Origin: Ktedonobacter sp.
GTDB taxonomy: Bacteria > Chloroflexota > Ktedonobacteria > Ktedonobacterales > Ktedonobacteraceae
DNA: 64,000 nt
Direction: 5' to 3'
Assembly (NCBI GenBank): GCA_041156125.1
Contig: JBEVTI010000008.1
Coordinates: 63,659 to 127,658, forward strand
In this document: positions 5,432 to 59,290 of the stretch, one piece after another
Numbering within the stretch: position 1 is the first letter of the stretch
Layout: the number at the start of each line of letters is the position of its first letter
Program-made: the position numbers and the translations under genes
Notes under the pieces: model-generated
Seen by the model: the letters and a program-made list of their open reading frames with translations, nothing else
Told to the model about the DNA's origin: nothing
Databases searched by the model: none

Positions 5432-8400
5432 ATGCTCATCACGCGTCTTGAATTAGAAAATATTAAAAGCTATAAGCAGGTCACGATCAATTTTCAGCGC
5501 GGCACCACGGCCATCAGCGGCTCTAATGGCGCGGGCAAAACAACACTTGTTGAAGCGATTGGTTTTGCCCTTTTTGATTCGATGCCCTATAAACAGGATC
5601 AGTTTGTGCGCGAGGGCGAGAAATACGGGCGCGTGGTGGTCCATCTAATCGGCAGCGATGATCGACCATATATTGTAGAGCGCCGTTGCGGCTCTGGCGC
5701 GCTCTGGACACTCTACGACAGCGAAGCTAACCTGCGCCTGGAGCAGCGCGCCGATGTACAGGATAAGCTGCACGAACTCTTTGGCATCGAACGCGAGCGC
5801 TCGCTGGAGAATCTTTTCCGCGATGCGCTGGGTGTCCCTCAGGGCACGTTTACTTCGATCTTTTTGCAAAAGCCGGCCATGCGCAAGCAGACGTTCGATG
5901 CCCTGCTGCAGATTGAAGATTACCGCACTGCGTTCGAGTATCTTTTAGAGGCCCAGAAGCAGTATAAAGAGCAATTATTTACGCAAGAGCGCGAGATCCA
6001 GCGCCTGACCTTTGAGACACGCGATCTGGAGCCATGGCGCGCTTCCCTCAAGGCCGAGCGCGCGCGGGATCAAGAACTCAAAGCGCGCAATGTCGAGGCA
6101 ACACAACGCTTGAGCAAGCAGCAGGTGTATGCCGCGGTGCTGAAGCAGCGCCAACTCCATCTCCAACAATGCCAGAGCCAGTATAATCAGAGCGTTATCA
6201 TCCATGAGAGCACACGCAAGCAACTTGAGCTTGCCGATCAGACCCTCAATGATGCCCGCGCCTCTCACCAGGCTGTAGCGGAGAGCGGGCCTGACTTCGA
6301 GCGCTATCGGCTGGCCGAAACCGTGTTAACACGCCTGCGCCTTGATGAGCGCAAGCGCAACACATTGCGCCAGCAACAGGCTGATCTCAACAATGCGCTG
6401 GCCACCACCAGCGCTAATCTTCAGCATATTCAGTTCCGCCTGGACGAAGTCGCGTACAATCGCCAGCTCATCCTGGATCTATTGCCTGCCGTGGAGCGAC
6501 AGAGCGCGCTGGATACGCAGATCGCGATACTTAATCAGGATATGCGGCGCTACGAAGAATTGCGCGAGGCAGGCGTGAAGATCTATCGAGCGCGCGAAAA
6601 GAGCCAGCATGAGTTGGTCGGGGTGCGCCAACGCATCGCCGAAATTGAGCCACTCCTGCCCCTGGCGGATCTGCTTAGCGAGCGCCTCGCCCGCGTCACT
6701 CTTTTGAAAAATCAGAGCGAGCAGCGCCAGGATAAGCGCCTGCAACTTGAAGAGAAGCAGCAGGCTATGCTGGAGAAACAAAACGAACTGAAGCAGGCTC
6801 TGGCGAAACTGAATAAGGCTGAGCGAGCCATTGAAAGCATCGAGGCACACCGTCACGAGGGCGAGAAGTACGCGCTTGTGCTTAAAAGCCAGCAGAGCCT
6901 GGAAAATCAGCAGCACCACCTGCGCGGCAATATCGAGAGCTACGCAGATTCCCGCAGCCGCTCAGCGGGTGGTCAGTGTCCGTTGCTTCACCAGACTTGC
7001 CTGAACATTCAGCAACAGGGTCAGTTAAGCCTGGAGGCGTATTTTGATGGGGTGCTCATACAGGAACAGGAGCACCTGACGAGTCTTGAACAGCAGCTCA
7101 CGCTCATGGCTGAGCAGGGGAGCGCGTTAAGGAAACATGCCGAGGGGCTGGAGAAGTTGGGCCAATATATTGAGCAGCGCGACGGCAACGCGGAACGCAT
7201 TGAGCGTCTGAATGTGGAGATGCGCCGGATGGAGCGAGATGCTGAGCGACTGCGTAACGAGTGGGAAGGTTTCCAGCAAATCGACCAGGAGATTAGTCGG
7301 GCCAGAATACTCCACGCGGAGAGCGAGAGCGCTGATCGACTGACCCGGCAATTGCCAGGTTTTTATAGCCAGATAAAACAGCTCCTGGAGCGCATACAGC
7401 AATATGATGCCGAATTTGAGGAGCGCAAGAGCGAGAGCGAGCCGCTCAAACATAGTCGTGCTCAACTGGAGGAGTGCGCGCGTGAACTGGCCGCGCTCAA
7501 TAATCCGCGTCAAAGCAGTCAGACCGCGCAAGAGATCATCAAGCCAGAAGCAACCTATCGTCAGCAATTGCAGGAAGCCCAGCAGTCCTGGCAAGAGCTT
7601 ACATACCAGCTCAACCAGTTATGCACAGCACTGGAGGTCTACTCTCATCTCGATCAGTCTATCGCTGCTCAAGAGTTGCTGCGCGAACAGGCCGCGCCGG
7701 GTCATCAGAGGTATCTGCAAAATCTGGATGTTGCCGCCCGCTTGCCCGAAAAAGAGCTGGCCTGGGCAGAGGCGCGGGCCAGTATGGAGCAGGCTGAGCG
7801 CGAGCTCGCTCAGGCACATCAGGCATACCAACTGGCCGCTACAGCTTTTAGTGAGTATGAATTCCAGGTCGTTGAGGCAGAGATTAAGAGCCTGGGCGAG
7901 GAAATCGCTGGCCTGGCTGTCGAGATGAATAAACTCCAGAAAGATATCGATGCCCTGGAGCACAAGATTATTGCCGCTGAGGCTTTGCTGCTGGAACTGG
8001 AGACGGTACAAAAGGAAAAACAGACCCTGGAAGAACTGGGAACTATGATGGAGCAGTTCCGCAAGCTGATCAAGGATGCCGCGCCATATGTGCTGCACGC
8101 TATGCTCAGCGATATTTCAGCCGAGGCTAATCGCATCTTTGGCGAGATCATGGGCGATCGGAGCGCGCAGTTGAGTTGGAGCGACGATTACGAGATTACC
8201 CTGTTACGCCAGGGCGTCAAGCGTTCGTTTGCCCAGTTGAGCGGAGGCGAACAGATGAGCGCGGCCCTGGCTCTACGCCTGGCTTTACTCAAGAAGCTTT
8301 CCACGCTCAATCTGGCCTTCTTTGACGAACCCACGCAAAATATGGATGAACAGCGGCGCAGCAATCTGGCTGAACAGATTCGGCGTGTACGCGGCTTCGA

Positions 8401-8527
8401 TCAGTTGATCGTTATCAGCCACGATGATACCTTTGAACAGGGCCTGGATGCCCTGATCCGCCTGCGCAAGCAGGATGGTCAGACGTGCCAGTTAGATGAA
8501 AATGATGATTTAAATGATGCGGCTTGA
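5432..8527 (+). CDS. sbcC: Rad50/SbcC-like SMC-family ATPase (long coiled coil, hook-like Cys pair, ABC signature)
   Basis: N-terminal LELENIKSYK...ISGSNGAGKTTLVEAIGFALF Walker A; about 700 aa of coiled coil with central CPLLHQTC; C-terminal LSGGEQMSAALALRLAL signature, LAFFDEPTQNMD Walker B, VISHD H-loop. Start set at ATG 5432 (GAGGA 8 nt upstream), not ORF-track 5294. Confidence 0.8.
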   Translation: MLITRLELENIKSYKQVTINFQRGTTAISGSNGAGKTTLVEAIGFALFDSMPYKQDQFVREGEKYGRVVVHLIGSDDRPYIVERRCGSGALWTLYDSEANLRLEQRADVQDKLHELFGIERERSLENLFRDALGVPQGTFTSIFLQKPAMRKQTFDALLQIEDYRTAFEYLLEAQKQYKEQLFTQEREIQRLTFETRDLEPWRASLKAERARDQELKARNVEATQRLSKQQVYAAVLKQRQLHLQQCQSQYNQSVIIHESTRKQLELADQTLNDARASHQAVAESGPDFERYRLAETVLTRLRLDERKRNTLRQQQADLNNALATTSANLQHIQFRLDEVAYNRQLILDLLPAVERQSALDTQIAILNQDMRRYEELREAGVKIYRAREKSQHELVGVRQRIAEIEPLLPLADLLSERLARVTLLKNQSEQRQDKRLQLEEKQQAMLEKQNELKQALAKLNKAERAIESIEAHRHEGEKYALVLKSQQSLENQQHHLRGNIESYADSRSRSAGGQCPLLHQTCLNIQQQGQLSLEAYFDGVLIQEQEHLTSLEQQLTLMAEQGSALRKHAEGLEKLGQYIEQRDGNAERIERLNVEMRRMERDAERLRNEWEGFQQIDQEISRARILHAESESADRLTRQLPGFYSQIKQLLERIQQYDAEFEERKSESEPLKHSRAQLEECARELAALNNPRQSSQTAQEIIKPEATYRQQLQEAQQSWQELTYQLNQLCTALEVYSHLDQSIAAQELLREQAAPGHQRYLQNLDVAARLPEKELAWAEARASMEQAERELAQAHQAYQLAATAFSEYEFQVVEAEIKSLGEEIAGLAVEMNKLQKDIDALEHKIIAAEALLLELETVQKEKQTLEELGTMMEQFRKLIKDAAPYVLHAMLSDISAEANRIFGEIMGDRSAQLSWSDDYEITLLRQGVKRSFAQLSGGEQMSAALALRLALLKKLSTLNLAFFDEPTQNMDEQRRSNLAEQIRRVRGFDQLIVISHDDTFEQGLDALIRLRKQDGQTCQLDENDDLNDAA

Positions 8528-8568
8528 GACTGCTCGGCACCTGTGGCGCCTCGCATAAAGTCTCTTTT

Positions 8569-8619
8569 GTGGTGACTGTCAGGTTAATTGGTCGCGAGCC
8601 AGTTAACCTGACAGCCACT
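8569..8619. other. imperfect hairpin (12 bp perfect core, 17 bp total, 15-nt loop) between sbcC-like and nurA-like genes
   Basis: tggtgactgtcaggttaa ... ttaacctgacagccacta; no U-tract follows. Confidence 0.4.
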
Positions 8620-8637
8620 ACAGGACAGGACGTGTAT

Positions 8638-9906
8638 ATGCTACATAAGGGAAAATTGCTGGCAGCCCTGCACGCGAAACGGGGACAGTTTAGCGCTTAT
8701 GATGGATCGTTTGGCGACCAGTTGAACGCGTATCGCCACGCGTTAGAGACGCTTTATCTGGAATATCCTTCAGGAGAGCAACTGGCTTTTGTGCTGCCGC
8801 CGGATCGCAAGGGTTTACCGCCTGCCGGAGCGCGTCCCAGTGTGGAGTTTGACCGCTGGCTGGTCTACGCTCCACATCACGACTATCATGGCCCGCTCTT
8901 TCCATTTAATCATGAGTTTGCCAATCATGAACAGGCCCGGCATTGGGCCGAGTGTATCGAGGGCGTGACGACGATTGCTGTCGATGGCAGTCAGCTCCAG
9001 CCCTGGCGCGATGCCTCGATTCCTGTGGCCTTGATCCAGGTGGGCCTCTTTGTCAATCCGCACGCCCGCGGCAAGCCCTATACCAAAGATGTGTTTATAG
9101 AGGTGCTTTCTCCTGACGAAATCGCCGAGGCGTCAAGCACGGAAAGCGAGGACCCGGATAGCTATCCTTATTCCGAGATGCAGGTCAACCTGCGGCGCTA
9201 TCAGTTGGAAGTGGAGACACTGCGCCGCCAGATGGAGCAACACGCCCATAGTCGGCGCGAGGGCGAACCAACTCACAGCCCTGTCGTCTTCTTCGACGGT
9301 TCGCTTGTCGTTTCTTTCGCGGTGACTATGCCCGAACCATACCGCAGCGAATATATCCAGGCCGCGAAATCCCTGCTACAAACCTCGGAGGAGCAGCGTG
9401 TGCCGCTGGTGGGCTTTATCGATACCAGCTATGCTCGTGATATGATTACTATGTTACGCCGCCTGGACGCGAACCAGGCCAGGCCGGCTTTACGCGAAAC
9501 CAAGCGTATTCACGACGCGATACTCTGGCAGGGCCAAATGCGTTGGGGCGACCGCACGCCAGCTATGATCTGCGCGCGTGGCGATATTCTGGAGGACTAT
9601 GGCCCCTATCGCGAAAGTGTCGCATTTTGCTATATGCAAACCACCGCTCGCCGTCCGCCTGCCCGTCTGGAATTTCCGCGCTGGCTACTCGATGATGGCC
9701 TGCTTGAACCCATGCTGGATGCCGTGCGCGCCGAACTAATCGCTGGCAATGGCTACCCTTACGCCATCGAAACTGCCGACGCGGTAGCTGTGATCACAAT
9801 GCAGGATCGCCAGGAATTCTATGCCCAATTCCAGGAGTTTATGCTGCGCCAGGGCATGAAGTTCACTTTCTCGAATAAATCTGTCAGTAAAAGCAGAAGA
9901 CGCTAA
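8638..9906 (+). CDS. nurA: NurA-like 5-prime to 3-prime nuclease (RNase H-like fold)
   Basis: Two DGS motifs characteristic of NurA (IAVDGSQL and VVFFDGSLVV) plus C-terminal GYPYAIETADAVAVI resembling the NurA YPYxLxxA[HD]xxA motif; start set at ATG 8638. Confidence 0.65.
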   Translation: MLHKGKLLAALHAKRGQFSAYDGSFGDQLNAYRHALETLYLEYPSGEQLAFVLPPDRKGLPPAGARPSVEFDRWLVYAPHHDYHGPLFPFNHEFANHEQARHWAECIEGVTTIAVDGSQLQPWRDASIPVALIQVGLFVNPHARGKPYTKDVFIEVLSPDEIAEASSTESEDPDSYPYSEMQVNLRRYQLEVETLRRQMEQHAHSRREGEPTHSPVVFFDGSLVVSFAVTMPEPYRSEYIQAAKSLLQTSEEQRVPLVGFIDTSYARDMITMLRRLDANQARPALRETKRIHDAILWQGQMRWGDRTPAMICARGDILEDYGPYRESVAFCYMQTTARRPPARLEFPRWLLDDGLLEPMLDAVRAELIAGNGYPYAIETADAVAVITMQDRQEFYAQFQEFMLRQGMKFTFSNKSVSKSRRR

Positions 9907-10034
9907 TTGCTTTTGAAAAGCAGGCCAAAACAGCTTTTGCCTCGTTTATAGCGGGAAAGATTCCATGTGTTATACTTGTTTGTATACGAGAAACGATTTT
10001 GTTGATTAGCCTTAATGGTCAGAGAAGAAGACCC

Positions 10035-10682
10035 ATGATGTCTCGCGCGATTACACACACATTCAACTGTCCCTGTGGGGAACAGTTCGAACATACAATT
10101 TACAACTATGTCAATATCACCAGGGAGCCACGCCTGCGCTATATTGTCTTGAGTGGTCTGCTCAATGTCGCGACCTGCCCACATTGCGGGCGCAAGGCTG
10201 CGATTGGGCGACCCTTTATCTATTCCGATCCTGAACATAAGTTGCTCGCTTATGTTCATCCACGCAACGACGCTCCCGAAGAGGCCCGACTGATGATTCT
10301 CGAACAATTGCGCAATGTCTACGAGACTATTGTCAGCGAGGGTGAAGCGCCAGAATGTTCCGCGGACGAGCCCATCTCAGAAAGCTCCGCGGAACAAATC
10401 ATGGCCACGCCACCGCTTCAGGTGGTCTTCGGCAACGATCAGTTGCACGGGTTGATCAATGCTACGCTCAGCCAGCATGAGCGCCTGGGCAAGCTCGCGC
10501 TCAGCACCAGGAGTCATGCCGAAGCCGAACGTGGGCAAATGCTGGATATTGCGCGCAAACTCGCCAGCGAGATGAACTGCCAGATCGAGGTAGAGAATCT
10601 GGAGGATGAGTATACTGTGTGGATCTTTGGTCCACGTCGCCAGATCGGCGCTCTTATGCGCGAACTGTCGGCCATACATTAG
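10035..10682 (+). CDS. CpXC domain protein (hypothetical)
   Basis: Two CPxCG motifs ([17 protein letters not shown]) spaced as in CpXC domain; function unknown. Confidence 0.5.
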
Positions 10683-10726
10683 CAACCAGAACACATGCTG
10701 GCAACAAAAAAGGTGGGGCTACTGGG

Positions 10727-11212
10727 ATGATTACAATTGGCGTGCTGACCATTAGCGATGGCGGGGCACGTGGCGAGCGCGTAGATACCAGCGGCGAGAC
10801 GATTCGCGCCATGGTCGCGGATTTACCAGACGCGGTTGTAAGCGCTGGCGCGCTTGTGCCCGACGAGCGCCCGCTGATCGAAGCCACGCTACGCGAGTGG
10901 TGTGACGACAAACACCTCAACCTGATTCTGACAACCGGCGGAACCGGCCTGGCTCCCCGCGATGTCACCCCCGAAGCCACGCGCGCGTTAATCGAGCGCG
11001 AGGCTCCCGGTATTGCCGAGGCTATGCGCGCGGAGAGCCTGCGCCACACACCCTTTGGCATGCTCTCGCGCGGTGTAGCTGGCACACGCGGGCATACGCT
11101 GATCATTAACCTGCCCGGTAGTCCCAAAGCCGTCAAAGAATGCCTGCAATGCATCCTGCCAGTCCTACCTCACGCTATCAATCTGCTTATCGAAGGTCCA
11201 CGTGAACATTAA
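10727..11212 (+). CDS. mogA: molybdenum cofactor biosynthesis protein MogA/MoaB (MoCF_biosynth domain)
   Basis: [11 protein letters not shown]...[19 protein letters not shown]...[14 protein letters not shown] conserved MogA motifs; AAAGGTGG RBS 9 nt upstream of ATG 10727. Confidence 0.8.
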
Positions 11213-17214: not shown

Positions 17215-18435
17215 ATGATTGAATTAGAACGTGGCACGGCAGGCACAATTTCATCCCGCCATGGCACCGATACGGAAAATCTTGATCTTGTTGAGAAACA
17301 ATATGACGAAATTTTGGGTCATTTGCTCAACAAGGACCTTACATACACTGACGATGGTGAATGCAATAGTAAGGATGAACCAGAGTTGGAAGAGGACCTG
17401 CCAGGTCTTGACACTGGCCCCCTGGAATTAGATGAAATGGCTGACATCCACGAGGAACTGGCTGCGTTGCCAGGCACTTCTGATCTCGAACCTTCTTCGC
17501 TTTTAACTCTGCCTGCGTTGACTACCGATGACGCCCAGCATGCGCGGCGCGTGCATCCCCGCCGCAGACGCTCGGAAGATGCAGAAGAAAATTCAGTCCA
17601 TAACTCCGATGCTGGTGAGTCGGACGCAGTAATGACCTATCTACGCGAAATCGGTCGCGTGCCCATGATTACTCATGAGCGCGAAATCGAACTGGCTCAA
17701 CGCATTGAGATGGGCGATCGCGCGGCGCAAAAACAATTTATTCTGGCAAATTTACGCCTGGTAGTGAGCATCGCGAAACGCTATGTTGGCCGCGGCCTGA
17801 CCCTGCTTGATCTTATTCAAGAAGGCAATATCGGCCTGATTCGCGCGGTTCAGCGCTATGACTGGCGGCGTGGGCATCGTTTCTCAACTCACGCGACATG
17901 GTGGATTCGCCAGGCAATCAGTAGAGCCGTCGCCGATAAAGGTCGGACCATTCGCTTACCTGTGTATGTAAACACCGCTCTGAACCGCATTCGCCGCGAA
18001 CGCCAGCGCCTGCTCCAGGAACTGGGACGCGAACCTACAGAGTTGGAGCTGGCCGAGGCTACGGGTCTCGATCCCATTCGTATGGTCGAACTCCAGGCCG
18101 CGCCTGGAGCGCCCGTCTCCCTTGAACTACCTGTTGGCGAAGATGAAGAACAGGAACTGGGCGACGTACTGGCTGATACAGAATCAGCCTCACCCGAAGA
18201 TATCGCGACCACTCAGACTCTAAAAGACGAAGTTCAGCGCGTCCTGGAATCCGTACTTACTCCCCGTGAACGCCTTGTCCTACAATTGCGCTTTGGTCTG
18301 AACAATAGTCAGGCCCATCCCCTTGAACAAGTTGGTCGCGAGCTGGGTATTACGCGCGAGCGCGTACGCCAGATCGAGGCAGGCGCACTGGCCAAACTAC
18401 GTCAACCACCCGTGCTGGACCGCTTACGCGGCTAA
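17215..18435 (+). CDS. RNA polymerase sigma-70 family factor (RpoD/SigA-like, regions 1.2-4 present, acidic N-terminus)
   Basis: AVMTYLREIGRVPMIT (1.2), NLRLVVSIAKRYVGRGLTLLDLIQEGNIGLIRAVQRYD (2.x), RTIRLPVY, and region 4 HTH LEQVGRELGITRERVRQIE. Confidence 0.9.
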   Translation: MIELERGTAGTISSRHGTDTENLDLVEKQYDEILGHLLNKDLTYTDDGECNSKDEPELEEDLPGLDTGPLELDEMADIHEELAALPGTSDLEPSSLLTLPALTTDDAQHARRVHPRRRRSEDAEENSVHNSDAGESDAVMTYLREIGRVPMITHEREIELAQRIEMGDRAAQKQFILANLRLVVSIAKRYVGRGLTLLDLIQEGNIGLIRAVQRYDWRRGHRFSTHATWWIRQAISRAVADKGRTIRLPVYVNTALNRIRRERQRLLQELGREPTELELAEATGLDPIRMVELQAAPGAPVSLELPVGEDEEQELGDVLADTESASPEDIATTQTLKDEVQRVLESVLTPRERLVLQLRFGLNNSQAHPLEQVGRELGITRERVRQIEAGALAKLRQPPVLDRLRG

Positions 18436-18520
18436 GCAAATAGCGCAGTCAGCAGAAAAATGCTGAACAAATGAGTTGCACTCGTTTGTTCAGCATTTTT
18501 CTGCTGACTGCGCTATTTGC
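18436..18520. terminator. 36-bp perfectly paired hairpin; candidate bidirectional terminator between convergent sigma factor and rel genes
   Basis: gcaaatagcgcagtcagcagaaaaatgctgaacaaa / 13-nt loop / tttgttcagcatttttctgctgactgcgctatttgc read directly; begins 1 nt after sigma stop and overlaps last codons of 18513..(-). Confidence 0.7.
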
Positions 18521-20909
18521 GCTTGCCTAAATCGCGCTCGACGTGGCTCACATCTTTGATGCGCGCCAGTTTCTGCAATACAATACGCATCTGCTCCAGG
18601 TTCTCAATTTCCAGCATGAGCGTGACCACTGCCTGCTCACGGCTACTAGAAATATGGGAACTAACAGAAGTTATGTTAACACCCGCCTCGGAGACGATAG
18701 CCGCGATGTCGTGAATCAGTCCCGAGCGATCGCGCGCAGTAATCACAACCGGCGCGAGGTAGCGCTGCTGGTCCATCGTGGTCCAATTGACATTGATCAG
18801 CCGTTCGCGCTCGCGCTCACGATAACGCTCAATATTTTTACAGTCAGCGCGGTGAATAATCGCTCCTTTACCCCGGCTGATAAAGCCCACAATCTCATCG
18901 CCGGGCAGCGGACAGCAACAGTTCGCCAGTGAGGTAAGCAAACCGCTCACCCCTGCCACCTGCAACTGCGGCGCGGGCGTGCTACGCGTGACCACGGTCA
19001 GAGTGCGCTCTTCTTTGATCTCGACGCCATAAAGCTCTTGAACCTTGACCACTACGGCGCGCGGACGCAGTTCGTCGCAGCCAATACTCGCCAGCACATC
19101 CGCGAATGCCTCTTTGGCAAAGAACTTGCACAGCGCCTCCTGCGCGTCTTCGCCAATCTCTTCAACATCACGTATCGCCAGACCCTTCAGCTCGCGCTCC
19201 TGATTTTTCAGCTCACGCTCCAGGCGCTCGCGTCCGATCTGTATATTAATATCGCGCTCATAGACCTTTAAGTAGCGGCGAATCTTGCTCTTGGTCGCGG
19301 CAGTGCGCGCGAAATTTAACCAGTCGCGTGTTGGGTGAGCCGTACGTGTGGTAATGATATCGACAATATCGCCGCTCTGCAACTCGTAGTCCAGTGGCAC
19401 CATACGAGTGACCATATGTTTACCATCGCCATTGCCACTCTCGGTCGTCACGCGCGCGCCCGCGCAATGATCGCCGACCTGTGTATGCACGCGGTAAGCA
19501 AAGTCTAGCGGCGTCGAGCCAACAGGCAGATCTTTGACCTCGCCTTTAGGCGTAAAGACGAAAATCTGCTCTTCCAGAAATTCGTCGCGTACAGCTCTGA
19601 CAAACTCGCTATCACTGGAGGTGGTAGCATGCAGTTCGCGCTGCCATTCAGCCAATTGGCGCAGCCAGGAAAGTAACTCCCTGGCCGAGGCCGAGGCATG
19701 ATCGCCGATATCTTTATAGTGCCAGTGCATCGCGACACCATATTCGGCCTGCTCGTGCATCCCATGAGTGCGAATCTGCACCTCTACCAGCTGATCCTCC
19801 AGACAGAAGATCGTTGTGTGTAAAGCCTGGTAACCGTTGGGCTTAGGATTGGCAATAAAATCCTTGATACGCCCCTCTTTCGGCCTCCAGAGACTATGAA
19901 CATGTCCCAGAGCCAGGTAACAATCTGAGGTTGTATCGACCAGGATACGAAAGGCAATAAGGTCATGGATCTGGCTCAAATCAGCCTGGCTGAGAGCCTC
20001 AATCCGTCCATCATCGCTCATCGAGCGCTTAAGTTTTTGATAAAAACTGTAGAGATGCTTGACCCTGCCCGAAACTTCAGTTTGCAAACCCAATTTGCCC
20101 ATCTCGTCGCGCAAAATTGTGCAGACACGCTCGACATAAGCTCGCCACTGCTTGCGTTCTTCTTCGATCACGCTTAGCAGCCAGGTGTATTTCTCTGGCT
20201 CTAACACAGCGAAGGCCATGTCCTCCAGCTCGCTCTCCAGGCGCGACATACCCAGGCGACCGGCCAGCGGCGCGTAAATCTCCTGCGTCTCCCGCGCCAT
20301 CGTCAACAATTCCTGCGCATCCACAGCATAGCTCTTTGCGTAACCTACGCGCATCAAATGCAGTCGATAGGCCAGTTTTAAGAGCACAACGCGCGGATCT
20401 TCCGCCATCGCGAAGAACATCTTGCGTATCGTTTCCGCCTGGCGACGACGCTGATTTTCACGAATACGCTGCTTTTTGGGATCGTTGTTCTCTGCCTCAG
20501 CCTGACTAAGCTGAACTTGCGTCATACTTTGTTGCTTACGCTCCAAAATATTCATACGCAGCATACTATCCACGACACGCGCTACTGCTATCCCCAGCTC
20601 TTCCTCAACTTGCTCTAACGTCACCAGAGCGGCATCCACTGCTTCAAAAATCAGACCAGACGAGATCCCGATCGCGTCAATATGCATTTGCGCCAGAATA
20701 TTGGCTACAGCTAACGCGTACTCTAAAGGGGGGATCAAACGCAAACCACGCACACCTTCGCAGGTCTGTCGCGCGAGTTGGAGAGCATTTCGCACCTGCT
20801 CCTGTTCCACAGGCGGCATATAGCTTGCGATAAACTGGAGTAATTTTTGAACCGCGTCCCCAACAGGCTCCTTCTCTGCCGGCTCTTCACTAGTTGGCAT
20901 TTTTATCAT
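18513..20909 (-). CDS. RelA/SpoT homolog (HD-like, synthetase, TGS, ACT); hydrolase HD domain degenerate, synthetase motifs intact
   Basis: Synthetase motifs GRVKHLYSFYQK, GRIKDFIANPKPNGYQALHTT, EVQIRT, AEYGVAMHWHYKD present; HD region reads IPPLEYA...LIFEAVDAA...LAYRLHL (HP, HD and ADRLHN residues substituted). Start set at MIKMPTSEE. Confidence 0.85.
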   Translation of the reverse strand: MIKMPTSEEPAEKEPVGDAVQKLLQFIASYMPPVEQEQVRNALQLARQTCEGVRGLRLIPPLEYALAVANILAQMHIDAIGISSGLIFEAVDAALVTLEQVEEELGIAVARVVDSMLRMNILERKQQSMTQVQLSQAEAENNDPKKQRIRENQRRRQAETIRKMFFAMAEDPRVVLLKLAYRLHLMRVGYAKSYAVDAQELLTMARETQEIYAPLAGRLGMSRLESELEDMAFAVLEPEKYTWLLSVIEEERKQWRAYVERVCTILRDEMGKLGLQTEVSGRVKHLYSFYQKLKRSMSDDGRIEALSQADLSQIHDLIAFRILVDTTSDCYLALGHVHSLWRPKEGRIKDFIANPKPNGYQALHTTIFCLEDQLVEVQIRTHGMHEQAEYGVAMHWHYKDIGDHASASARELLSWLRQLAEWQRELHATTSSDSEFVRAVRDEFLEEQIFVFTPKGEVKDLPVGSTPLDFAYRVHTQVGDHCAGARVTTESGNGDGKHMVTRMVPLDYELQSGDIVDIITTRTAHPTRDWLNFARTAATKSKIRRYLKVYERDINIQIGRERLERELKNQERELKGLAIRDVEEIGEDAQEALCKFFAKEAFADVLASIGCDELRPRAVVVKVQELYGVEIKEERTLTVVTRSTPAPQLQVAGVSGLLTSLANCCCPLPGDEIVGFISRGKGAIIHRADCKNIERYRERERERLINVNWTTMDQQRYLAPVVITARDRSGLIHDIAAIVSEAGVNITSVSSHISSSREQAVVTLMLEIENLEQMRIVLQKLARIKDVSHVERDLGKRK

Positions 20910-21323
20910 GGCACGTTTCCAGTCAACAACATAAGAGGGCTTCCTCGCTGAGTAAACAGATAAACAGGCACTACACTCGCGGCACCCATTCACCCGCTCA
21001 GCATGAGGCGCGCTATGCGTTGTAAGCATAGATAGGCTCTGGTTACTAATCCTCGATCACTCTATTTCTTTCACGCCCATTACAGATAATACGTAGACCG
21101 CAGAAAAAATTCCCCTTTCCCGGCCAGGTTTTATCCATAACCCACTGCGCTTCTGCATCACTCTATTTAGACGATCGTGAATGTTTCGCGAATAAAGCGC
21201 AAAAAAAACGCACTACATAATCCAGACATATCAGTACGCGGCGCCAACGTCAGCGGCCCGGCGCCGTACACAAGCAGCCAGTTATGACTCATGATCTAGC
21301 GTGAAGAACGCACTGCACAGGCT

Positions 21324-23639
21324 CTAGCTGGTGTGGCGCCCCAGATCACGCGCCACGCTGACTACATTTTTGACCTGTTTAAGCTTCTCGTAGACGGGAT
21401 CAATCTGGTCAAGCTGGGTGATTTCAAGTGTAGCAGTAATCGTAGCACGTTGGAGCGAGCTTCTAGTCGTAGAAGCCATTGCGGTTATGTTAATACCAGC
21501 GTCGGAAACTACCGCGGCTACGTCGCGCAGCAGACCAGGCCGATCGCGCGCGACTACTATTGTGGGAACCAGAAAATGCTGTATCTCTATCTGGAGCCAG
21601 TTGACATCAATCAAGCGCTCACTCTCCTGATTACGATAACGGCGCAGAGTGCGACAGTCACTACGATGCACAATAATTCCCCGATTGGGGTTGACCGTGC
21701 CAGTAATCGCATCTCCAGGCAAGGGGCAACAGCAGTGAGCCAGGTTGACGACAATCAATGGCGCTTCATTCTTTTCAGAACTCTGCGTCAGACTCTGTTT
21801 GCGACTTTCAATACTCTCACTGGTCTTGAAGTCTCCGCGACTTTGCAGGATGGGGGCCAGATGATTGATCAGAGCCATCACCGGGAATTCCGCGCGGCCT
21901 AGCGCGAGATAGAGGTCATCCACTGTGATGTATTTCTTACTAGCAAGAAACTTTGTCAGATCTTCATCCTGGACGATCCCAATGCCGTTGGCTCCCATAG
22001 CCTTTAATGCCAGATCAACGCGCTCACGTCCCAGTTGCAAGTTGACTTCTCGCTCGTACGTTTTGAGATAGCGGCGGATCTTGTTCTTGGCCGAAGACGT
22101 ATGGGCAAAGTTTAACCAGTCACGAGTTGGATGCATCTTTGGATTAACAATGATATCTACAATCTCACCGCTTTTGAGTTCGTAGTCCAGCGGAGCAAAG
22201 CGCGTCACCAGACGCCCACTATCCTCCATATTGGTAACGATGCGCGCGCCAGCGCAGTGATCGCCAATATCGCTATGAACACGATAGGCCAGATCCAACG
22301 GCGTCGAGCCACGCGGCAGGTCTTTGACCTCGCCCTTGGGCGTAAAGACAAAGATCTGCTCCTGAAAAATATCCCCTTTGACCGCTTCAACAAACTCATC
22401 CGCGTTTTGCGGCAACTCACGCTGCCAATCTCGCAGTTGTTCGATCCAGGCAATCATCTCATTGGTAGAGAGGCGCGCACCGCCGCGATCCTTCATATAC
22501 CAGTAACTGGCAATGCCATAGTCCGCGGTACGTTGCATCTCGTGCGTGCGAATCTGAATCTCGGTCAGACGATTATCCAGACCAAAAACGGTGGTGTGCA
22601 GCGACTGATAGCCATTGACTTTCGGAATAGCGATGAAATCCCTGATGCGCCCATCAGTTGGACGCCAGAGCGCATGAATATAGCCCATCGCCAGGTAACA
22701 ATCGTGAACCGAGTTCACCAGAATGCGGAACGAAACCAGGTCGTGAATCTGCTCAATCTCGCCATTGTTCTGTTTCAACTTGCCGTACAGGCTGGACAGG
22801 TGCTTCTGCCAGGAATACACCTCAGCTTTAATACCGGCGTTCTGCATTTCTTGTCGCAACATCTGACAAACTCCCTCAGTGTGCGACTCGCGTTTTACGC
22901 GCTCTTCCTCAACTTCGCGAGCCAGCCAGGTGTATTGTTCAGGTTCCAGATAACTAAAGACGAGATCCTCCAGTTCAGCCTGCACAAGGATCATGCCCAG
23001 CCGCCTGGCCAGTGGCGCGTAGATCTCGCGCGTCTCGCGCGCCTTACTCTGCTGCTGCGTGGGATTCATCGCGCTCAGTGTACGCATGTTATGCAAGCGA
23101 TCTGCCAGCTTCAAGACCACTACACGTGGATCTTCGGCCATGGCCAGCAACATTTTGCGCACAGTTTCGCTCAACTGACGACGCTTCAGGTCACGCACCT
23201 GGCGCTGACGTTGCTCCATCTGCTCGGGCGTCTCAGGTATGCCTGGCGCTGGTTTCTCTTTGCTACCCTTGGATTTCAGCGCCAATGCGTCAAACTTGGT
23301 GACACCATCGACAATGTTGGCCACAGCTTCCCCAAAGCGCGTGCGCAATTCCTCCAGTGTAAAATCTGTATCCTCTACCACATCGTGGAGTAGCGCCGAG
23401 GCAATCCCATCCGCGTCAATACGCATATCCGCCAGCAAGAGCGCCACCTCCAATGGATGCAGGATGTACGGTTCCCCTGAACTGCGCGCAACTCCGGTAT
23501 GGGCTTGTTGTGCAAGTTCAAAGGCATCTTGAATCTTCTGCAGATCCTCTAGAGATAGGTACTCTGATGTCTCAGCCAGGAGATGCTCAAGCGTTATCTG
23601 AGATAATGCGATCGCTTCATTAGAATTAATGGCTACCAT
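21324..23639 (-). CDS. RelA/SpoT homolog with intact HD hydrolase domain; synthetase motifs partly substituted
   Basis: HPLEVA...LLHDVVEDT...LADRLHNMRTL intact; synthetase region SWQKHLSSLYGK (R to W), GRIRDFIAIPK (K to R), ADYGIASYWYMKD (H to Y). Start set at MVAINSNE with GAGGTG upstream. Confidence 0.85.
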   Translation of the reverse strand: MVAINSNEAIALSQITLEHLLAETSEYLSLEDLQKIQDAFELAQQAHTGVARSSGEPYILHPLEVALLLADMRIDADGIASALLHDVVEDTDFTLEELRTRFGEAVANIVDGVTKFDALALKSKGSKEKPAPGIPETPEQMEQRQRQVRDLKRRQLSETVRKMLLAMAEDPRVVVLKLADRLHNMRTLSAMNPTQQQSKARETREIYAPLARRLGMILVQAELEDLVFSYLEPEQYTWLAREVEEERVKRESHTEGVCQMLRQEMQNAGIKAEVYSWQKHLSSLYGKLKQNNGEIEQIHDLVSFRILVNSVHDCYLAMGYIHALWRPTDGRIRDFIAIPKVNGYQSLHTTVFGLDNRLTEIQIRTHEMQRTADYGIASYWYMKDRGGARLSTNEMIAWIEQLRDWQRELPQNADEFVEAVKGDIFQEQIFVFTPKGEVKDLPRGSTPLDLAYRVHSDIGDHCAGARIVTNMEDSGRLVTRFAPLDYELKSGEIVDIIVNPKMHPTRDWLNFAHTSSAKNKIRRYLKTYEREVNLQLGRERVDLALKAMGANGIGIVQDEDLTKFLASKKYITVDDLYLALGRAEFPVMALINHLAPILQSRGDFKTSESIESRKQSLTQSSEKNEAPLIVVNLAHCCCPLPGDAITGTVNPNRGIIVHRSDCRTLRRYRNQESERLIDVNWLQIEIQHFLVPTIVVARDRPGLLRDVAAVVSDAGINITAMASTTRSSLQRATITATLEITQLDQIDPVYEKLKQVKNVVSVARDLGRHTS

Positions 23640-24065
23640 CCAACACCTCGGCGTTTCGGGAAGAATATCTTGCACCTAGTTTAAACCACAAACGCGTACA
23701 ATGCAACGAAAATGTCAGGCGTTCTCGATATAGTATCTTACGGATAACGAACAAGTAATGTCACGAATCCGCGCCTGGCCCGTATATTTAACGCTCTCTA
23801 GGGCCTGGACCGGCTTAGCAAGACCGATCCCGCGCAACGCCGCGCTCCTGATAGAGGGTTCCCTCGCTGGAACAAATTTCTCTCGCTCTTAAAATACATT
23901 CCCCCTAATAAGGACGTAATGTCAAGAGGCTTCTTAAAAGATGTGGCAAATTTGGGGAAAAGGAAAACCCCTATCCAACCATACACTCAGGTAAGGCTGA
24001 ATAGGGAGTGAAAACGGCTCTTCTAATTAACATCATCAGAAGGCCGATTAAGAACATTCGCTTAG

Positions 24066-40784: not shown

Positions 40785-43700
40785 CTATGTCATTATGTCT
40801 GTTTCATTATCCTGCTCTTCGGTAGAAGGCTGAGACGAGATCATAGCGGCAAGGCGATCTCGGGTTATTTGTGTGTCCATATGCTCTGGCCCCAGCACAC
40901 GCTCCTGGAGAGCGAGGATACGTTTGTAGATAGAGCTTTTTTCATTCTCTCGATGTTGACGGTGGTAGAGCATTGCCAGAGCGTTGAGGGAGTATATGAG
41001 AGCAGGATGATCGAGGCCGAGAATGCGTTCTTGCGCTTTTATTCCCTGCTGAAGCACGCTTTCAGCTTGTTCATACTGACCTTGTTCTATATACAACCTG
41101 CCGAGTTGGCTGAGCGTTCGCAATGTGTCGGGATGCTCGTGTCCGAGAAGACGTTTCTGGATGCTGAGGGTTTGCTCAAGCAGGTTCGCGGCCTGTTCAT
41201 ATTGTCCCTGCTCAGTATAGAAACTGCCAAGGTCGCTCATGCTACGTAGGGTATCAGGGTGTTCATTTCCTTGAGCGACCTGGCTCATGGCCAGTGCCCT
41301 CTTATAAAGCATCTCTGCGTTCTCAAGGCGTCCCTGATCGTGGGCTAGCCTGGCCAGATTATGCACAGTTTGCGCGGTGAGAGGATGTTCTGGTCCCAAA
41401 AATTGTTCGCGGATAAGCAATGCACGTTCATATAATTGTCTGGCTTGCTCGTATTTCCCTTGTGCTCGATACATCCCGGCAAGGTTGTTTAAACTCTGGG
41501 CTGTATCGGGATGGGTGTTGCCAAGGACTCGCTCCCGTACTGCCAACACTCGTTCATATAACGGTTGAGCTTTCTCAAACTGTCCTTGTTCCCGATAGAG
41601 ACCAGCCAGATTATTTAAACCACGCAACGTATGTGGGTGTTCCCCGCCAAGCGTTTGTTCCCAGAGTTGATTGGCTTGCTGAATTAACGGTTCTGCTTCC
41701 ACATATCTGCCTTGTTCTCGATAAAGCCCTGCCAGTGTGTGAAGTGTTTGGACATGGTCGGGATATTCTGGTCCTCGTATGTGTTGCCAGATTGCCATTG
41801 CCCGAAGCAGTAAGGTCTCGGCTTCCTGATATTGCCCCTGTTTGCGCGCCAGGAAAGCCAGATGCCCAAGGCTACGAGCTGTCTCAGGATGCTCAGGGCC
41901 TAAGATCTGCTCTCTTAATGCCAATACGTGCTCTAGAAGCTGTCGTGCTCGTTCGTAGTTTCCCTGTTCGCGATAGAGCCTTCCGAGCGTCATCATCGTT
42001 TGTATGGTTTCAAGATGGGCTTTTCCCAGGACTCGTTCACGAATAGCCAATGCTCTTGCGTAAAGCGTTTCTGCCTGTTCATAATCTCCCTGAGCTGCTG
42101 TCAGTTCAGCAAGATTATGGATGGTTTGTGCTGTTTCTTTCTGTTCTGTGCCTAAAACCCGTTCGTAGAGAGCAAGTGACTGGCGCAGTAAAGGCTGTGC
42201 TTCCTCAAAACGTGCTCGCCTGAGAAGAAAGTAGCCTGCTTGATTGAGAAGATAGGCTAGATCTGCCGTTGCCTGTACCGTGTCATGCCTGCTCCACTGG
42301 GCAGCCAGAAGCACATGGGGAAGCAAGCGTTCACAACGGTCCCAGTTGCTGACTTCTATGATGACGGGAAAGGCTCGCGCAAGCAGGAGCGTGACTCTCT
42401 GTACCCAGTTTTGTTGCTCCTCCATATGCAGTGATGTTCGTACCACACTCTGAACAAGCCGATGGATGCCAAGAGTCTGGTGGAATGCGTCACGAGTGAT
42501 AAGCGAGTAGGCTCGTAAGGCTTCTATGGCTTTTTCAAAGAGAAAACGATTGCTTACCACTGGTGAGAGCAACGGACCCAGCATCTCTCCTCCTTGCATA
42601 AGAAGGGCTTCATCAATGGCATCGGGATGCAAGAACGCGCAGACCTGGAGAAGGGCAACAGCGGCGGGATTGCGAGCTTCGACGCGTTGAAAGGCGAGTT
42701 GCCAGGTCGTCGCTACTGGTGCAGGATGATATTGTTCTTGCCCACGATGCTCGGCAAGCAAGTCAAGTTGATACTGATGATAGATTTGTATGTATACATC
42801 TAGATTCATGCCTGTGGCTTCCAGATAGGCACCCGCCTGGTCGAGCGCCAGCGGCAATACCCCCAATTCCTGCGCTAACTGTAGGGCCAGATGTTGCTCC
42901 TCGGCAGGGGCGTTTTCAAGGGGATCGTCGGGGAGGAGGCGTCCAGCACGTCTGAGGAGCAGCAGAGTAGCCTGAGCAGGCGTGAGACCTTCGAGCGTGA
43001 GGATATGAGCAATGCCGAGACGACGCAATGCTGTTGCCTGGGTGGTAAGCAAAATGTGTCCAAGAAGGAGAGAGGGAAGAAAGGGGAGACAGAGATCTGG
43101 CTCGTTGGCATTGTCCAGGATCAAAAGCCAGTGCTCATGATTCTGTAACCAGGTTTTCACTGCTCGAACAACGATTTCCTGCCTGGGGTCTTTTTGCTGT
43201 GGCAGATCGAGTACTCGTGCTATTTCCGCATATGATGCATACAAGGTCTCGGCATTTTCTGCTGAGACCCAGAACACGGCCTGATAGTGCTGACGAAAGC
43301 GATACGCATATTCAATCGCAAGTTGTGTTTTGCCAATGCCACTCAATCCTGTAAGCGCCTGTGCAGCGTGCGAGCCATTCGCGAGCTTTGCTTGAAACCA
43401 GGTATGTAGACGGTTCAGTAACTCTTCCTGACCAAGAAAAAAGGGATTGCGTGCAAAAGGGAGATGCCAGATGAGAGTAGATGTGTTCTGTGGCAGGCGC
43501 AGGGTGAGAAGGAAGAGATCTGCGAGCATGCGGCGCAAACCGGCTGTAATTTCAGCAAAGGCACGATCAATATTTGTCCATTCTGTCAAAAACGTTGCAT
43601 CAGATGGCAAGGGATGGAGGCGAGCAAAAGGAGCATCTTCCCAGTCAACAGGTCGAAGCAAGATAGGAACGACACGCACGCCATTTGTTTGTTCTCGTGC

Positions 43701-43967
43701 CAACGCCTGTTTCATTTGAGTGCTATAGCAATAATCGGATGCGAGGAAATCGGGACTAATCAGTAACAGAATAACAGAAGCACTTTGTAAGTAGCTATCA
43801 ACAATCTTTTCCCAGTCTTCCCCTGCCTGGATAAGTCGAGGATGCCAGGTGGTAATCAGGTTTTGCCGTTGAAGCAATGCGAGATGTTTCTCTAGTTCTA
43901 GCGCCCAGGAGGTATCCTCTTGTGCATACGCATAAAAAATAGCAATGGGTTGGTGTTGTTCTGGCAT
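40785..43967 (-). CDS. TIR - NB-ARC (STAND P-loop NTPase) - TPR repeat protein
   Basis: N-terminal TIR-like IAIFYAYAQEDTSWALELEKHL...ASVILLLISPDFLASDYC; P-loop GLSGIGKTQLAIEYA and Walker B WLLILDNANEP; more than 10 C-terminal TPR repeats. Confidence 0.8.
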   Translation of the reverse strand: MPEQHQPIAIFYAYAQEDTSWALELEKHLALLQRQNLITTWHPRLIQAGEDWEKIVDSYLQSASVILLLISPDFLASDYCYSTQMKQALAREQTNGVRVVPILLRPVDWEDAPFARLHPLPSDATFLTEWTNIDRAFAEITAGLRRMLADLFLLTLRLPQNTSTLIWHLPFARNPFFLGQEELLNRLHTWFQAKLANGSHAAQALTGLSGIGKTQLAIEYAYRFRQHYQAVFWVSAENAETLYASYAEIARVLDLPQQKDPRQEIVVRAVKTWLQNHEHWLLILDNANEPDLCLPFLPSLLLGHILLTTQATALRRLGIAHILTLEGLTPAQATLLLLRRAGRLLPDDPLENAPAEEQHLALQLAQELGVLPLALDQAGAYLEATGMNLDVYIQIYHQYQLDLLAEHRGQEQYHPAPVATTWQLAFQRVEARNPAAVALLQVCAFLHPDAIDEALLMQGGEMLGPLLSPVVSNRFLFEKAIEALRAYSLITRDAFHQTLGIHRLVQSVVRTSLHMEEQQNWVQRVTLLLARAFPVIIEVSNWDRCERLLPHVLLAAQWSRHDTVQATADLAYLLNQAGYFLLRRARFEEAQPLLRQSLALYERVLGTEQKETAQTIHNLAELTAAQGDYEQAETLYARALAIRERVLGKAHLETIQTMMTLGRLYREQGNYERARQLLEHVLALREQILGPEHPETARSLGHLAFLARKQGQYQEAETLLLRAMAIWQHIRGPEYPDHVQTLHTLAGLYREQGRYVEAEPLIQQANQLWEQTLGGEHPHTLRGLNNLAGLYREQGQFEKAQPLYERVLAVRERVLGNTHPDTAQSLNNLAGMYRAQGKYEQARQLYERALLIREQFLGPEHPLTAQTVHNLARLAHDQGRLENAEMLYKRALAMSQVAQGNEHPDTLRSMSDLGSFYTEQGQYEQAANLLEQTLSIQKRLLGHEHPDTLRTLSQLGRLYIEQGQYEQAESVLQQGIKAQERILGLDHPALIYSLNALAMLYHRQHRENEKSSIYKRILALQERVLGPEHMDTQITRDRLAAMISSQPSTEEQDNETDIMT

Positions 43968-50400: not shown

Positions 50401-50574
50401 ATAATTCCCGTTCTCTTACGACCCAGCGACTGGGAGAAAACTTCACTGGGCAATTTCCAACCGCTTCCCCAAAGTGGTCTACCAGTTACGACCTGGCCCA
50501 ATACTGATGAGGCTCTATTAGATATTGTCAAAGGTATTCGCCAGGCAGTCGAAGAACTTCAAAATACTCTTTGA
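47446..50574 (+). CDS. Ser/Thr protein kinase - TM - TIR - TPR-like - TIR multidomain protein
   Basis: Kinase: GKGGFASV, VAIK, HRDVKPQN, DFG, APE. Hydrophobic LLVMPLLILLTPFLLLY. TIR-like 1 around CILHHDKDRSWAEWIAWLLED...IIVIISPDYL. C-terminal TIR-like 2 IFIAYALDDKELCTRLKHQL...IVILSISAAFLASEYHQRE. Confidence 0.8.
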   Translation: MKNFQEGQIFGNYRLIELIGKGGFASVWRCEHIHLGVKVAIKFLSDMDSFGRVSFLQEAKIIATLRHPNIVRLLDYSVQDNQAYLVMEYALGSLGQRQSTQELLDLATVVSYVKQMAAALQYAHKQNIIHRDVKPQNMLISESGNILLSDFGIAIASANTSESGELNTGSMVGTAHFIAPEQILGKPRRASDQYSLAICAYFWLCGTYPFQGSISALIAQHMHTPPRPPLEFNPALPSSVGDVLLKALAKKPEDRFSSVEDFAKSLELACSGQGIIPQVPATTPYQATGIATHYYSRSTNIGPINVSIIPTSASLNATKPVQVSTISAPARQHSNLGLRFFTYLLVMPLLILLTPFLLLYHYSMQIWRSTRRAHRPNPIQPGRVIAILELLPLPQNFWPARLLSGKAASLAPPLPGDAIQNSSRLASVPLLASGQHNASWAKAAWMHTASFLTKGPPSLSTLADQSTLVQTLPGKDGFLDESLQNPDAQPPELASVDKQAPPIYHSPESLQPEERPDRWSRASARKNFCILHHDKDRSWAEWIAWLLEDDGLSSILPEWDFRPGYRVDRETRNAMSQAERIIVIISPDYLDVSNDQWGIVFNRERVRREGMILPIIVRECNSPLKKPLDTLVSINLVGRGVFHTSEKLLKAVRLNRSKPTLAPAFPLPNQDDSSLATRKLDRADNQQDTPPRGLDIISSSNPKVTTTPTERFDTGISSPQIIEQIKTAFSQEDWLDVIRKVRLLIQDSTPTGISWQIYRMQALAYHSLGQMAEAHGALEAALAMVNDKKERLALLDEYTNKLASLKHWSEMLPYAKEALTLAPEDIRWQVLHEHITTHLQREAFGLERSQGFDQALQQSDDKQNHQKTSAEHIISFHTQFSNPEDMKTMIISDKTINIFIAYALDDKELCTRLKHQLIPLANQSPLIIWYDHEIVPGKERVKIMEKRLTSSQIVILSISAAFLASEYHQREMRLALERYEANTASIIPVLLRPSDWEKTSLGNFQPLPQSGLPVTTWPNTDEALLDIVKGIRQAVEELQNTL

Positions 50575-58686: not shown

Positions 58687-59290
58687 AAGAAGCATCTGTC
58701 CCTTCTACTTATTAGTTAGATACCTGGCTCATTCATAGTAACATATTCTAGTATACGAGCCTTTTTCAGCAGGTGTACTCTCCGGCTGGAAAAACTCGGC
58801 TGGAATGAGGATGAGGAGCGTTCTCTCCTCTCAGATGCACAGGGCGGCTGTGCATACTCCTTTCTCGGCGCTGATGCGTGTCTTGCGCATCAGCGCCGAG
58901 AAAGTTTTGGGGACATGCAAAAGTTCTCACGATGCTTTTACAAGATCAGGGGATTTGCAAATAAAGAATTCCATTGACAACACCCTGACATGCCTGTATG
59001 ATCTGGTAGACAGAGGAAGAAAAGAGCCGAGCACGCCACGAGTATTTGGAGAAGCTCTGGACGCCTTGCCAGTCAGGGTAATTGCCCAACTGCGGAGTTG
59101 GAGCCAATGACACTTCCATTGCATGATGAAGCCATTGAAGAATACGTCGGACAGTAAGAACTGCAATATGAGGGACCAGGGCACAATGCTTAAGTATTTA
59201 GACCCGCGCGCTGGCTCTCATGCTGAAAGCTATTGAGGCTCTGCGAAGAACGGTTTGCCACCTTCTAATGGAGGATTCCAGTACGCATCT

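Follow-up and report, generated by a model that had tools for sequence, protein, structure and literature searches.

A rad50-nurA gene pair of Ktedonobacteria, probably from a split cassette of archaeal-type Mre11-Rad50/NurA-HerA machinery

The 64,000 nucleotides of Ktedonobacter sp. analyzed here (assembly GCA_041156125.1, contig JBEVTI010000008.1, positions 63,659 to 127,658 of the forward strand, hereafter the window) contain two adjacent genes, one coding for a Rad50-type ATPase and the other for a nuclease of the NurA family. Most likely they code for the Rad50 and NurA subunits of an archaeal-type Mre11-Rad50/NurA-HerA machinery and come from a five-gene cassette that has been split. According to the account in PMC12977600 (citing Constantinesco 2002, 2004), NurA was first described from thermophilic archaea, its gene being linked there to rad50 and mre11. 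In the characterized systems, ATP controls the binding and tethering of DNA ends by Rad50 dimers with Mre11, which also introduce the first cuts, and NurA dimers, fed by the HerA hexamer, degrade DNA in the 5' to 3' direction (PMC3326311, PMC9960219, PMC12977600). Bacterial nurA-herA pairs and a four-gene arrangement in Oceanithermus have been documented as well (PMC5448004). Since these arrangements and the archaeal rad50-nurA adjacency are on record, the kind of system is known, and the suggestion of an initial annotation of the window that the pair is an undescribed operon type had to be given up: NurA was linked to rad50 and mre11 from its first description, and orthologues of both window genes are found in five-gene cassettes.

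Both open reading frames lie on the forward strand where the initial annotation had put them, but the proteins are 1031 and 422 amino acids long and not 1032 and 423 (Table 1). The family assignments proposed there were confirmed by a Pfam profile search. In the Rad50 protein all the head motifs of the Rad50/SbcC group are intact, with the Walker A in the N-terminal part and the signature, the Walker B and the H-loop in the C-terminal part. Between the two halves of the head there are ca. 700 helix-prone residues, and a putative variant hook, CPLLHQTC, is located exactly midway (residues 516–523 of 1031), at a position that aligns with CPVC in Anaerolineae and CPTC in haloarchaeal orthologues. 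The hook was found as CP[LF]LxxxC in 120 of 120 Ktedonobacteraceae Rad50 homologues, and within the reach of the literature searched this Cx6C version appears to be undescribed. The Pfam matches were SMC_N (9.5e-27), AAA_23 (3e-19) and SbcC_Walker_B (5e-6). Against the PDB the best matches were archaeal Rad50 heads (5f3w/3aux, ~5e-31), those of M. jannaschii and P. furiosus ranging from ~5e-31 to 1e-21 and the top set going down to 8e-14 with the Rad50 of T. maritima included. The five best NCBIfam models were all archaeal Rad50 (PRK03918, 1e-47).

The start codon of nurA is backed by a conserved ATGCTNCATAARGG in close relatives. The protein matched PF09376 with 122.7 bits (cutoff 21, E 2.4e-35) over residues 111–386, covering the full profile, and carries both DGS motifs as well as GYPYAIETAD. 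Residues D116, E191, D220 and D381 are all invariant in an alignment of 26 sequences; by motif position, rather than by superposition, they would correspond to the catalytic residues of the archaeal enzymes. The basic tail at the C-terminus, conserved across the whole family, is a possible partner-binding tail. No NurA match was found in the PDB with phmmer at E<=1 and the family profile gave only weak matches (best E 0.41, Sso NurA), so that a comparison of folds was needed, and the window protein was found to have the RNase H-like NurA fold. The scan against PADLOC and NCBIfam matched no family.

The two genes are separated by 110 nt and their flanks are of a housekeeping type (cytochrome oxidase assembly and Mo-cofactor genes). 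Caa3_CtaG, UbiA/CtaB, SCO1 and BON are located upstream, and CpXC, Mog-like MoCF_biosynth, DUF1361, WD40 and a Na/H exchanger downstream; the gap, ctaG on one side and the CpXC and Mog-like genes on the other had been correctly noted in the initial annotation. The GC content of the pair, overall and at third codon positions, is similar to that of the neighboring genes. Neither Mre11 nor HerA was detected among the open reading frames of at least 80 aa in the window with jackhmmer profiles seeded from related loci, which bears out the local absence of both that had been reported.

Evidence that the two genes belong together comes from their conservation. We scanned one genome per GTDB species with the NurA pattern and obtained 583 loci with a NurA relative (designated here by L numbers), the best 80 of which were taken with 10-kb flanks; in 74 of them at least 1.5 kb was available upstream of nurA. 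Most of the 80 belong to Ktedonobacteria (Ktedonobacter racemifer, Dictyobacter, Thermogemmatispora, Thermosporothrix, Ktedonosporobacter) and the remainder to Rubrobacter, Anaerolineae, Chloroflexia and unclassified Chloroflexota. A rad50 gene was found immediately 5' of nurA on the same strand in 58 of the 74 informative loci; the coding regions overlap in 24 of these 58, typically by 11 nt, and the gap does not exceed 269 nt in the other 34. In a further 13 loci one or two TPR genes separate nurA from an upstream rad50, and in three rad50 was not within the flank. Order and strand are thus kept in 71 of 74 loci from several phyla, and also in archaeal plasmids, which substantiates the conserved two-gene unit suspected initially. 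The genes outside the pair vary from genome to genome, and the persistence of the pair over such changing flanks indicates a selected unit rather than a coincidence. Within Ktedonobacteria the pair is present in every locus with sufficient flanking DNA. A protein identical to the window Rad50 has been deposited from a metagenome-assembled Ktedonobacteraceae genome. Homologues from the same family as the window are 75–88% (NurA) and 53–80% (Rad50) identical to its proteins. Across the loci NurA identity goes from 68–76% in Ktedonobacteraceae to ~50% in other Ktedonobacterales and ~44% in other phyla, following taxonomy. The distribution in Ktedonobacteria is therefore uniform and vertical, like that of a housekeeping gene.

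Some of these loci deserve separate mention. The TPR proteins inserted between rad50 and nurA (one or two, of ~500 aa) are found in 13 Ktedonobacterales loci outside Ktedonobacteraceae (L048–L066) and have weak, sub-threshold matches to CarboxypepD_reg-like domains; a second TPR family is located downstream of nurA (e.g., in L047). All these TPR genes could be either accessory genes or hitch-hikers. In L090, a Ktedonobacterales long-read contig, IS605 OrfB/TnpB-like genes surround nurA and rad50 was called in fragments, reflecting either pseudogenization driven by insertion sequences or assembly frameshift errors. An orthologous NurA (41–45% identity) was found with no rad50, mre11 or herA in the DNA examined (10 kb on each side in L070 and L071, and 3.2 kb upstream in L079) in three loci labelled Blastocatellia and Heliobacteriaceae. 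PEP carboxylase and peptidase S58 are neighbors common to L070 and L071, which may point to mis-binned metagenome-assembled genomes (MAGs) or to a stand-alone NurA.

Decisive for the interpretation were the more distant relatives. Loci of Rubrobacter (L067), of Anaerolineae (L068, L077, L078) and of other Chloroflexota (L073–L076, L081) contain the five-gene cassette mre11-rad50-nurA-X-herA. Directly before rad50 there is a gene for a Metallophos/Mre11 protein of 430–470 aa, and nurA is followed by X, coding for a protein of ~200 aa, and then by a DUF87/HerA ATPase; HerA was located two genes 3' of nurA in eight bacterial loci and in three haloarchaeal plasmids. The window NurA is 44–45% identical over its full length to those of L067, L068 and L077, the window Rad50 34–57% identical to cassette Rad50 proteins (local BLASTP segment), and order and orientation are the same in the window and in the cassettes. 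By profile score, Mre11, Rad50 and HerA of the cassettes fit archaeal double-strand-break repair models best: Mre11_Pyroc (2e-31) outscores sbcD (3e-15), the double-strand-break repair helicase HerA (2e-59) outscores the antiphage HerA (3e-25), and Rad50 matches PRK03918 with values up to 5e-86. In a tblastn search of 72,556 plasmids with NurA only four haloarchaeal megaplasmids were matched. The three examined carry the five genes in the bacterial order, all five homologous, and their proteins came up in jackhmmer searches at 1e-110 or better. They carry the cassette despite the statement that haloarchaea lack apparent nurA and herA genes (PMC12977600). In L098 it is located after a phospholipase D family gene.

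In intact cassettes, bacterial or haloarchaeal, X is always between nurA and herA. It had no match in Pfam, NCBIfam or PADLOC, and is characterized by the motifs HxDYVCQV, GPRLS and FSPDYLxE. A metagenome census anchored on X found herA after it in 49 of 50 informative loci, nurA before it in 25 of 37, rad50 before nurA in 13 of 18 and mre11 before rad50 in all six, and X is probably an accessory subunit of HerA. Parts of the cassette also occur on their own, X-herA alone within ~9 kb flanks in L126 and L134 and nurA-X-herA without rad50 in L116, L129 and L147, indicating that the cassette is modular. Neither a rad50-nurA two-gene unit nor a five-gene cassette was described in the NurA/HerA literature searched (bacterial, Chloroflexi, SMC and defense). 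Within those limits the gene X and the occurrence of the cassette in megaplasmids of haloarchaea appear to be undescribed, and so does its reduction, throughout a class, to rad50-nurA with mre11 relocated.

The fate of mre11 could be followed in Ktedonobacteria. It was found within 10 kb of rad50-nurA in only one of ~65 loci (L047), and the Mre11 of this locus used as query retrieved more than 120 close homologues. In the complete Ktedonobacterales genome CP126532.1 mre11 is located at ~4.03 Mb and rad50-TPR-nurA at ~0.53 Mb (L048), i.e., 3.5 Mb apart, with no sbcC or herA near mre11. Other Ktedonobacterales mre11 genes are likewise stand-alone; in L086 and L090 mre11 is found convergent just after rad50-nurA-TPR. 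The Mre11 homologues cluster in three main clades that mirror three NurA lineages, and the third includes HKV01662.1, annotated as exonuclease SbcCD subunit D and labelled Ktedonobacteraceae bacterium, so that the family of the window does encode a cassette-type Mre11, only unlinked. The mre11 genes of this clade follow a gene for a small membrane protein of 130 aa and have no ATPase gene adjacent. Lacking a neighboring sbcC, the Ktedonobacteraceae Mre11 would have the NurA-linked Rad50 as its likely partner. The initial description of the module as one without Mre11 is accordingly right for the locus but not beyond it, given the orthologous stand-alone mre11 genes of Ktedonobacterales. As to the conserved 130-aa protein, it is hydrophobic, apparently with several membrane-spanning helices, and is encoded ~20 nt 5' of the relocated Ktedonobacteraceae mre11; homologues are also found upstream of mre11 in L047, L086–L088 and L090.

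Taken as part of a split cassette, the window genes suggest the following model. The ancestral unit would be mre11-rad50-nurA-X-herA, which stayed intact in Anaerolineae, Chloroflexia, Rubrobacter and the haloarchaeal megaplasmids. In Ktedonobacteria it would have broken up: rad50 and nurA, whose coding regions usually overlap, would have remained a co-transcribed pair, mre11 would have moved to a stand-alone site, and herA and X would have become unlinked. Carrying Mre11 on its head, a Rad50 dimer would bind and tether DNA ends, ATP would drive the engagement of the heads, and the apex of the coiled coil would dimerize through the Cys hook. Mre11 would open or clip the end and a NurA dimer would digest the DNA in the 5' to 3' direction, with D116, E191, D220 and D381 as its putative acidic active site; in characterized systems NurA is fed by the HerA hexamer. 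That the rad50-nurA junction persists suggests that the two proteins are made in stoichiometric amounts and possibly touch each other directly. The catalytic motifs of the window genes are intact, and from the biochemistry known for these families the window proteins are predicted to be enzymatically active, to assemble into a complex and to take part in break repair.

Several observations weigh against this interpretation. The NCBIfam scores of Rad50 (75–163 bits) are far under the equivalog cutoffs (700–1087), which supports its placement in the family by sequence but not at the equivalog level, and its hook is Cx6C and not CxxC. The nearest solved NurA structures share 10–16% identity with the window protein. 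The evidence for Mre11 is at the family level, one labelled MAG protein, and does not come from the genome of the window. Around the ~65 rad50-nurA loci of Ktedonobacteria (10 kb on either side), in the window and near some 10 mre11 loci neither herA nor X was found, so that a canonical HerA-NurA motor is only putative in Ktedonobacteria. Besides, a recent study doubts that archaeal HerA-NurA carries out resection and suggests an antiviral role (PMC12977600).

A different explanation of the same pattern is an autonomous Rad50-NurA or Mre11-Rad50-NurA machine, with HerA and X lost in Ktedonobacteria and Rad50 now acting as the ATPase partner of NurA, to recruit it to DNA ends or regulate it there. 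This we consider unlikely, and the same goes for its corollary that NurA, joined by the unlinked Mre11, has an SMC-type ATPase as motor or regulator in place of the HerA ring translocase. It is favored by the fact that rad50-nurA is the sole junction that survives every rearrangement, with a typical 11-nt overlap that suggests translational coupling, and that none of the Ktedonobacteria loci examined had herA or X nearby. The altered Cx6C hook and the persistent overlap would be signatures of rewiring, NurA is better conserved within Ktedonobacteraceae (68–76%) than Rad50 (48–54%), and the basic tail is conserved throughout the NurA family. However, the HerA-containing cassettes have an equal NurA architecture, tail included, and therefore no feature of NurA marks a state without HerA. 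Furthermore, mre11 proved to be merely relocated, and the parts of the cassette are dispersed in other loci (the X-herA and nurA-X-herA ones cited above), which makes missing linkage a weak indication of the loss of HerA and X.

Much less probable is a defense module against phages or plasmids, made up of an SMC-like sensor and a nuclease effector, the analogy with Wadjet and Lamassu drawn in the initial annotation. Rad50 does have PADLOC matches (mad3 2.7e-35, LmuB 3.3e-27), but they are limited to the generic ABC/SMC head, NurA, Mre11 and X have none, and no LmuA/LmuC, JetABD or other mad partner genes are present. In L096 and L097 the cassette is found directly after a Shango system (TerB-N protein, SngB 2.5e-170, SngC 1.5e-272); these two plasmids are syntenic and hence count as roughly one observation, and the third (L098) has different flanks. 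Some metagenomic nurA-X-herA loci adjoin HsdM or SIR2-CHAT genes, and the antiviral role raised for HerA-NurA (PMC12977600) would point in the same direction. Against this, there was no match in 50,697 phage records, plasmid matches were haloarchaeal only, and the pair is present in every sufficiently flanked Ktedonobacteria locus. A defense island is unlikely because of the housekeeping flanks, the divergence that tracks taxonomy and the absence of NurA matches in PADLOC and the phage collection, and the analogy is not supported. The 110-nt gap with a hairpin between the genes of the window could suggest a chance adjacency of unrelated genes or an annotation artifact, which has practically no probability left: it is refuted by the census, in which order and strand recur in several phyla and in archaeal plasmids, and the catalytic motifs are intact.

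Compared with known systems, the split cassette is closest to the herA-mre11-rad50-nurA operon of thermophilic archaea (Sulfolobus, Pyrococcus, Thermococcus), with which it has four families in common and rad50 immediately before nurA. It differs in that the window links only rad50 and nurA, that the intact relatives have the extra X and herA in the last rather than the first place, that the window NurA is 12–14% identical to solved NurA structures, and that the genes, including a rad50 with a Cx6C hook, come from a mesophilic soil bacterium. In Deinococcus-Thermus (D. radiodurans DR_0836/0837, the nurA-hepA of Thermus, and Oceanithermus, where sbcDC is next to hepA) nurA pairs with herA, in D. 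radiodurans without a linked rad50, whereas in the window it pairs with rad50 and herA is unlinked; the NurA subfamily is also different, as the absence of PDB matches with phmmer reflects. SbcCD and the Mre11-Rad50 of T. maritima share the Rad50/SbcC-type ATPase with its coiled coil and, putatively, the apex hook, and a phosphoesterase of the Mre11/SbcD type is encoded in the order and family of the window. However, the window Rad50 fits archaeal Rad50 models (1e-47) far above TIGR00618 sbcC (6.7e-9), and nurA occupies the downstream position with no sbcD adjacent. Lamassu LmuB, Wadjet JetC and MADS mad3 likewise combine an ABC/SMC-like head with an adjacent nuclease gene, but their defining partners are absent at the window locus, NurA is in no PADLOC model, and context and distribution are housekeeping-like.

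If the split-cassette interpretation is correct, the known range of the archaeal-type Mre11-Rad50/NurA-HerA machinery would be widened by an entire class of filamentous, mesophilic soil bacteria. Both domains, Bacteria and Archaea, have the cassette, and its modules, mre11, rad50-nurA and X-herA, are each separable, X almost always preceding herA and rad50-nurA being the most persistent link. This persistence hints at a direct functional coupling, a point left unresolved in the archaeal literature. The locus is also a test case in the debate on whether HerA-NurA acts in repair or in the destruction of foreign DNA. If Ktedonobacteria really have no HerA, their NurA would be the first natural one that works without it.

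Table 1. Coordinates of the genes, motifs and other features described in the text (window positions unless a locus is given).
Feature	Location	Strand	Remarks
rad50-type ATPase gene	5432..8527	+	ATG 5432, stop 8525-8527; 1031 aa; ABC head in two parts, long coiled coil, putative central Cys hook
Rad50 Walker A GSNGAGKT	5519..5542	+	aa 30-37; motif position
Rad50 variant hook CPLLHQTC (Cx6C)	6977..7000	+	aa 516-523; coiled-coil midpoint; aligned with CPVC/CPTC of orthologues
Rad50 ABC signature LSGGE	8237..8251	+	aa 936-940; motif position
Rad50 Walker B / D-loop AFFDEPT	8315..8335	+	aa 962-968; motif position
Rad50 H-loop VISH	8411..8422	+	aa 994-997; motif position
Strong hairpin in rad50-nurA spacer	8560..8631	+	113-nt spacer, minimum free energy -53.4 kcal/mol, z -5.6
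nurA nuclease gene	8638..9906	+	ATG 8638, stop 9904-9906; 422 aa
NurA motif AVDGSQ	8977..8994	+	within IAVDGSQL; D116 invariant in 26 homologues
NurA RRYQLE	9193..9210	+	E191, sole residue invariant in all 105 family representatives
NurA second DGS motif FFDGS (D220)	9289..9303	+	within FFDGSLVV
NurA GYPYAIETAD	9751..9780	+	D381 invariant; pattern used to find related genome loci
NurA basic C-terminal tail SKSRRR	9886..9903	+	conserved across whole NurA family
CpXC zinc-ribbon gene	9999-10682		3' of nurA
Mog-like MoCF_biosynth gene	10619-11212		after CpXC
Sigma-70 gene	17215-18435
RelA/SpoT paralogues	18513-21029; 21324-23675	-	full length, in tandem; HD_4, RelA_SpoT, TGS, ACT
TIR-NB-ARC-TPR protein	40785-43967	-	1060 aa
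Ser/Thr kinase with TIR-domain regions	47446-50574	+	at least 2 TIR-domain regions; 1042 aa
NB-ARC-TPR protein	59255-61378	+	707 aa
Gene X	L067:10803-11423; L077:11279-11866; L075:4170-4757; L096:10163-10828; L097:10085-10786; L098:10277-10861
Haloarchaeal megaplasmid cassettes	L096 (NZ_CP084885.1); L097 (CP002989.1); L098 (NZ_CP119991.1)
130-aa protein gene	L092:312-704; L093:9587-9979; L094:5406-5798; L095:996-1388
Inserted TPR genes	L048:8364-9974; L052:6840-8585, 8650-9990; L063:6548-8005, 8159-9826
Second TPR family	L047:11478-12704		downstream of nurA
IS605 OrfB/TnpB-like genes around nurA	L090:12705-20865		rad50 called in fragments

The spacer between the two genes of the window contains a strong hairpin that may modulate the translation of nurA or the stability of the mRNA. 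It was not found in the three close relatives aligned (L002, L003, L045), it is followed by no T-run, and the sequence of its arms is unique within the window. A scan for promoters and terminators gave no more sites than shuffled sequence.

The CpXC gene, followed by the Mog-like gene, was considered as a third component. It is located downstream of nurA in 33 Ktedonobacteraceae loci, mostly immediately and sometimes 2–6 kb away, and in no other lineage. The candidate was rejected, the synteny being limited to one family and broken in several loci; the neighborhood is probably family-level synteny and not part of the system.

Farther along the window there is a tandem of full-length RelA/SpoT paralogues adjoined by a sigma-70 gene. 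Three large proteins of the STAND/TIR type, a TIR-NB-ARC-TPR protein, a Ser/Thr kinase with TIR-domain regions and an NB-ARC-TPR protein, are encoded 30–50 kb from rad50-nurA and could be NLR-like signaling or defense genes.

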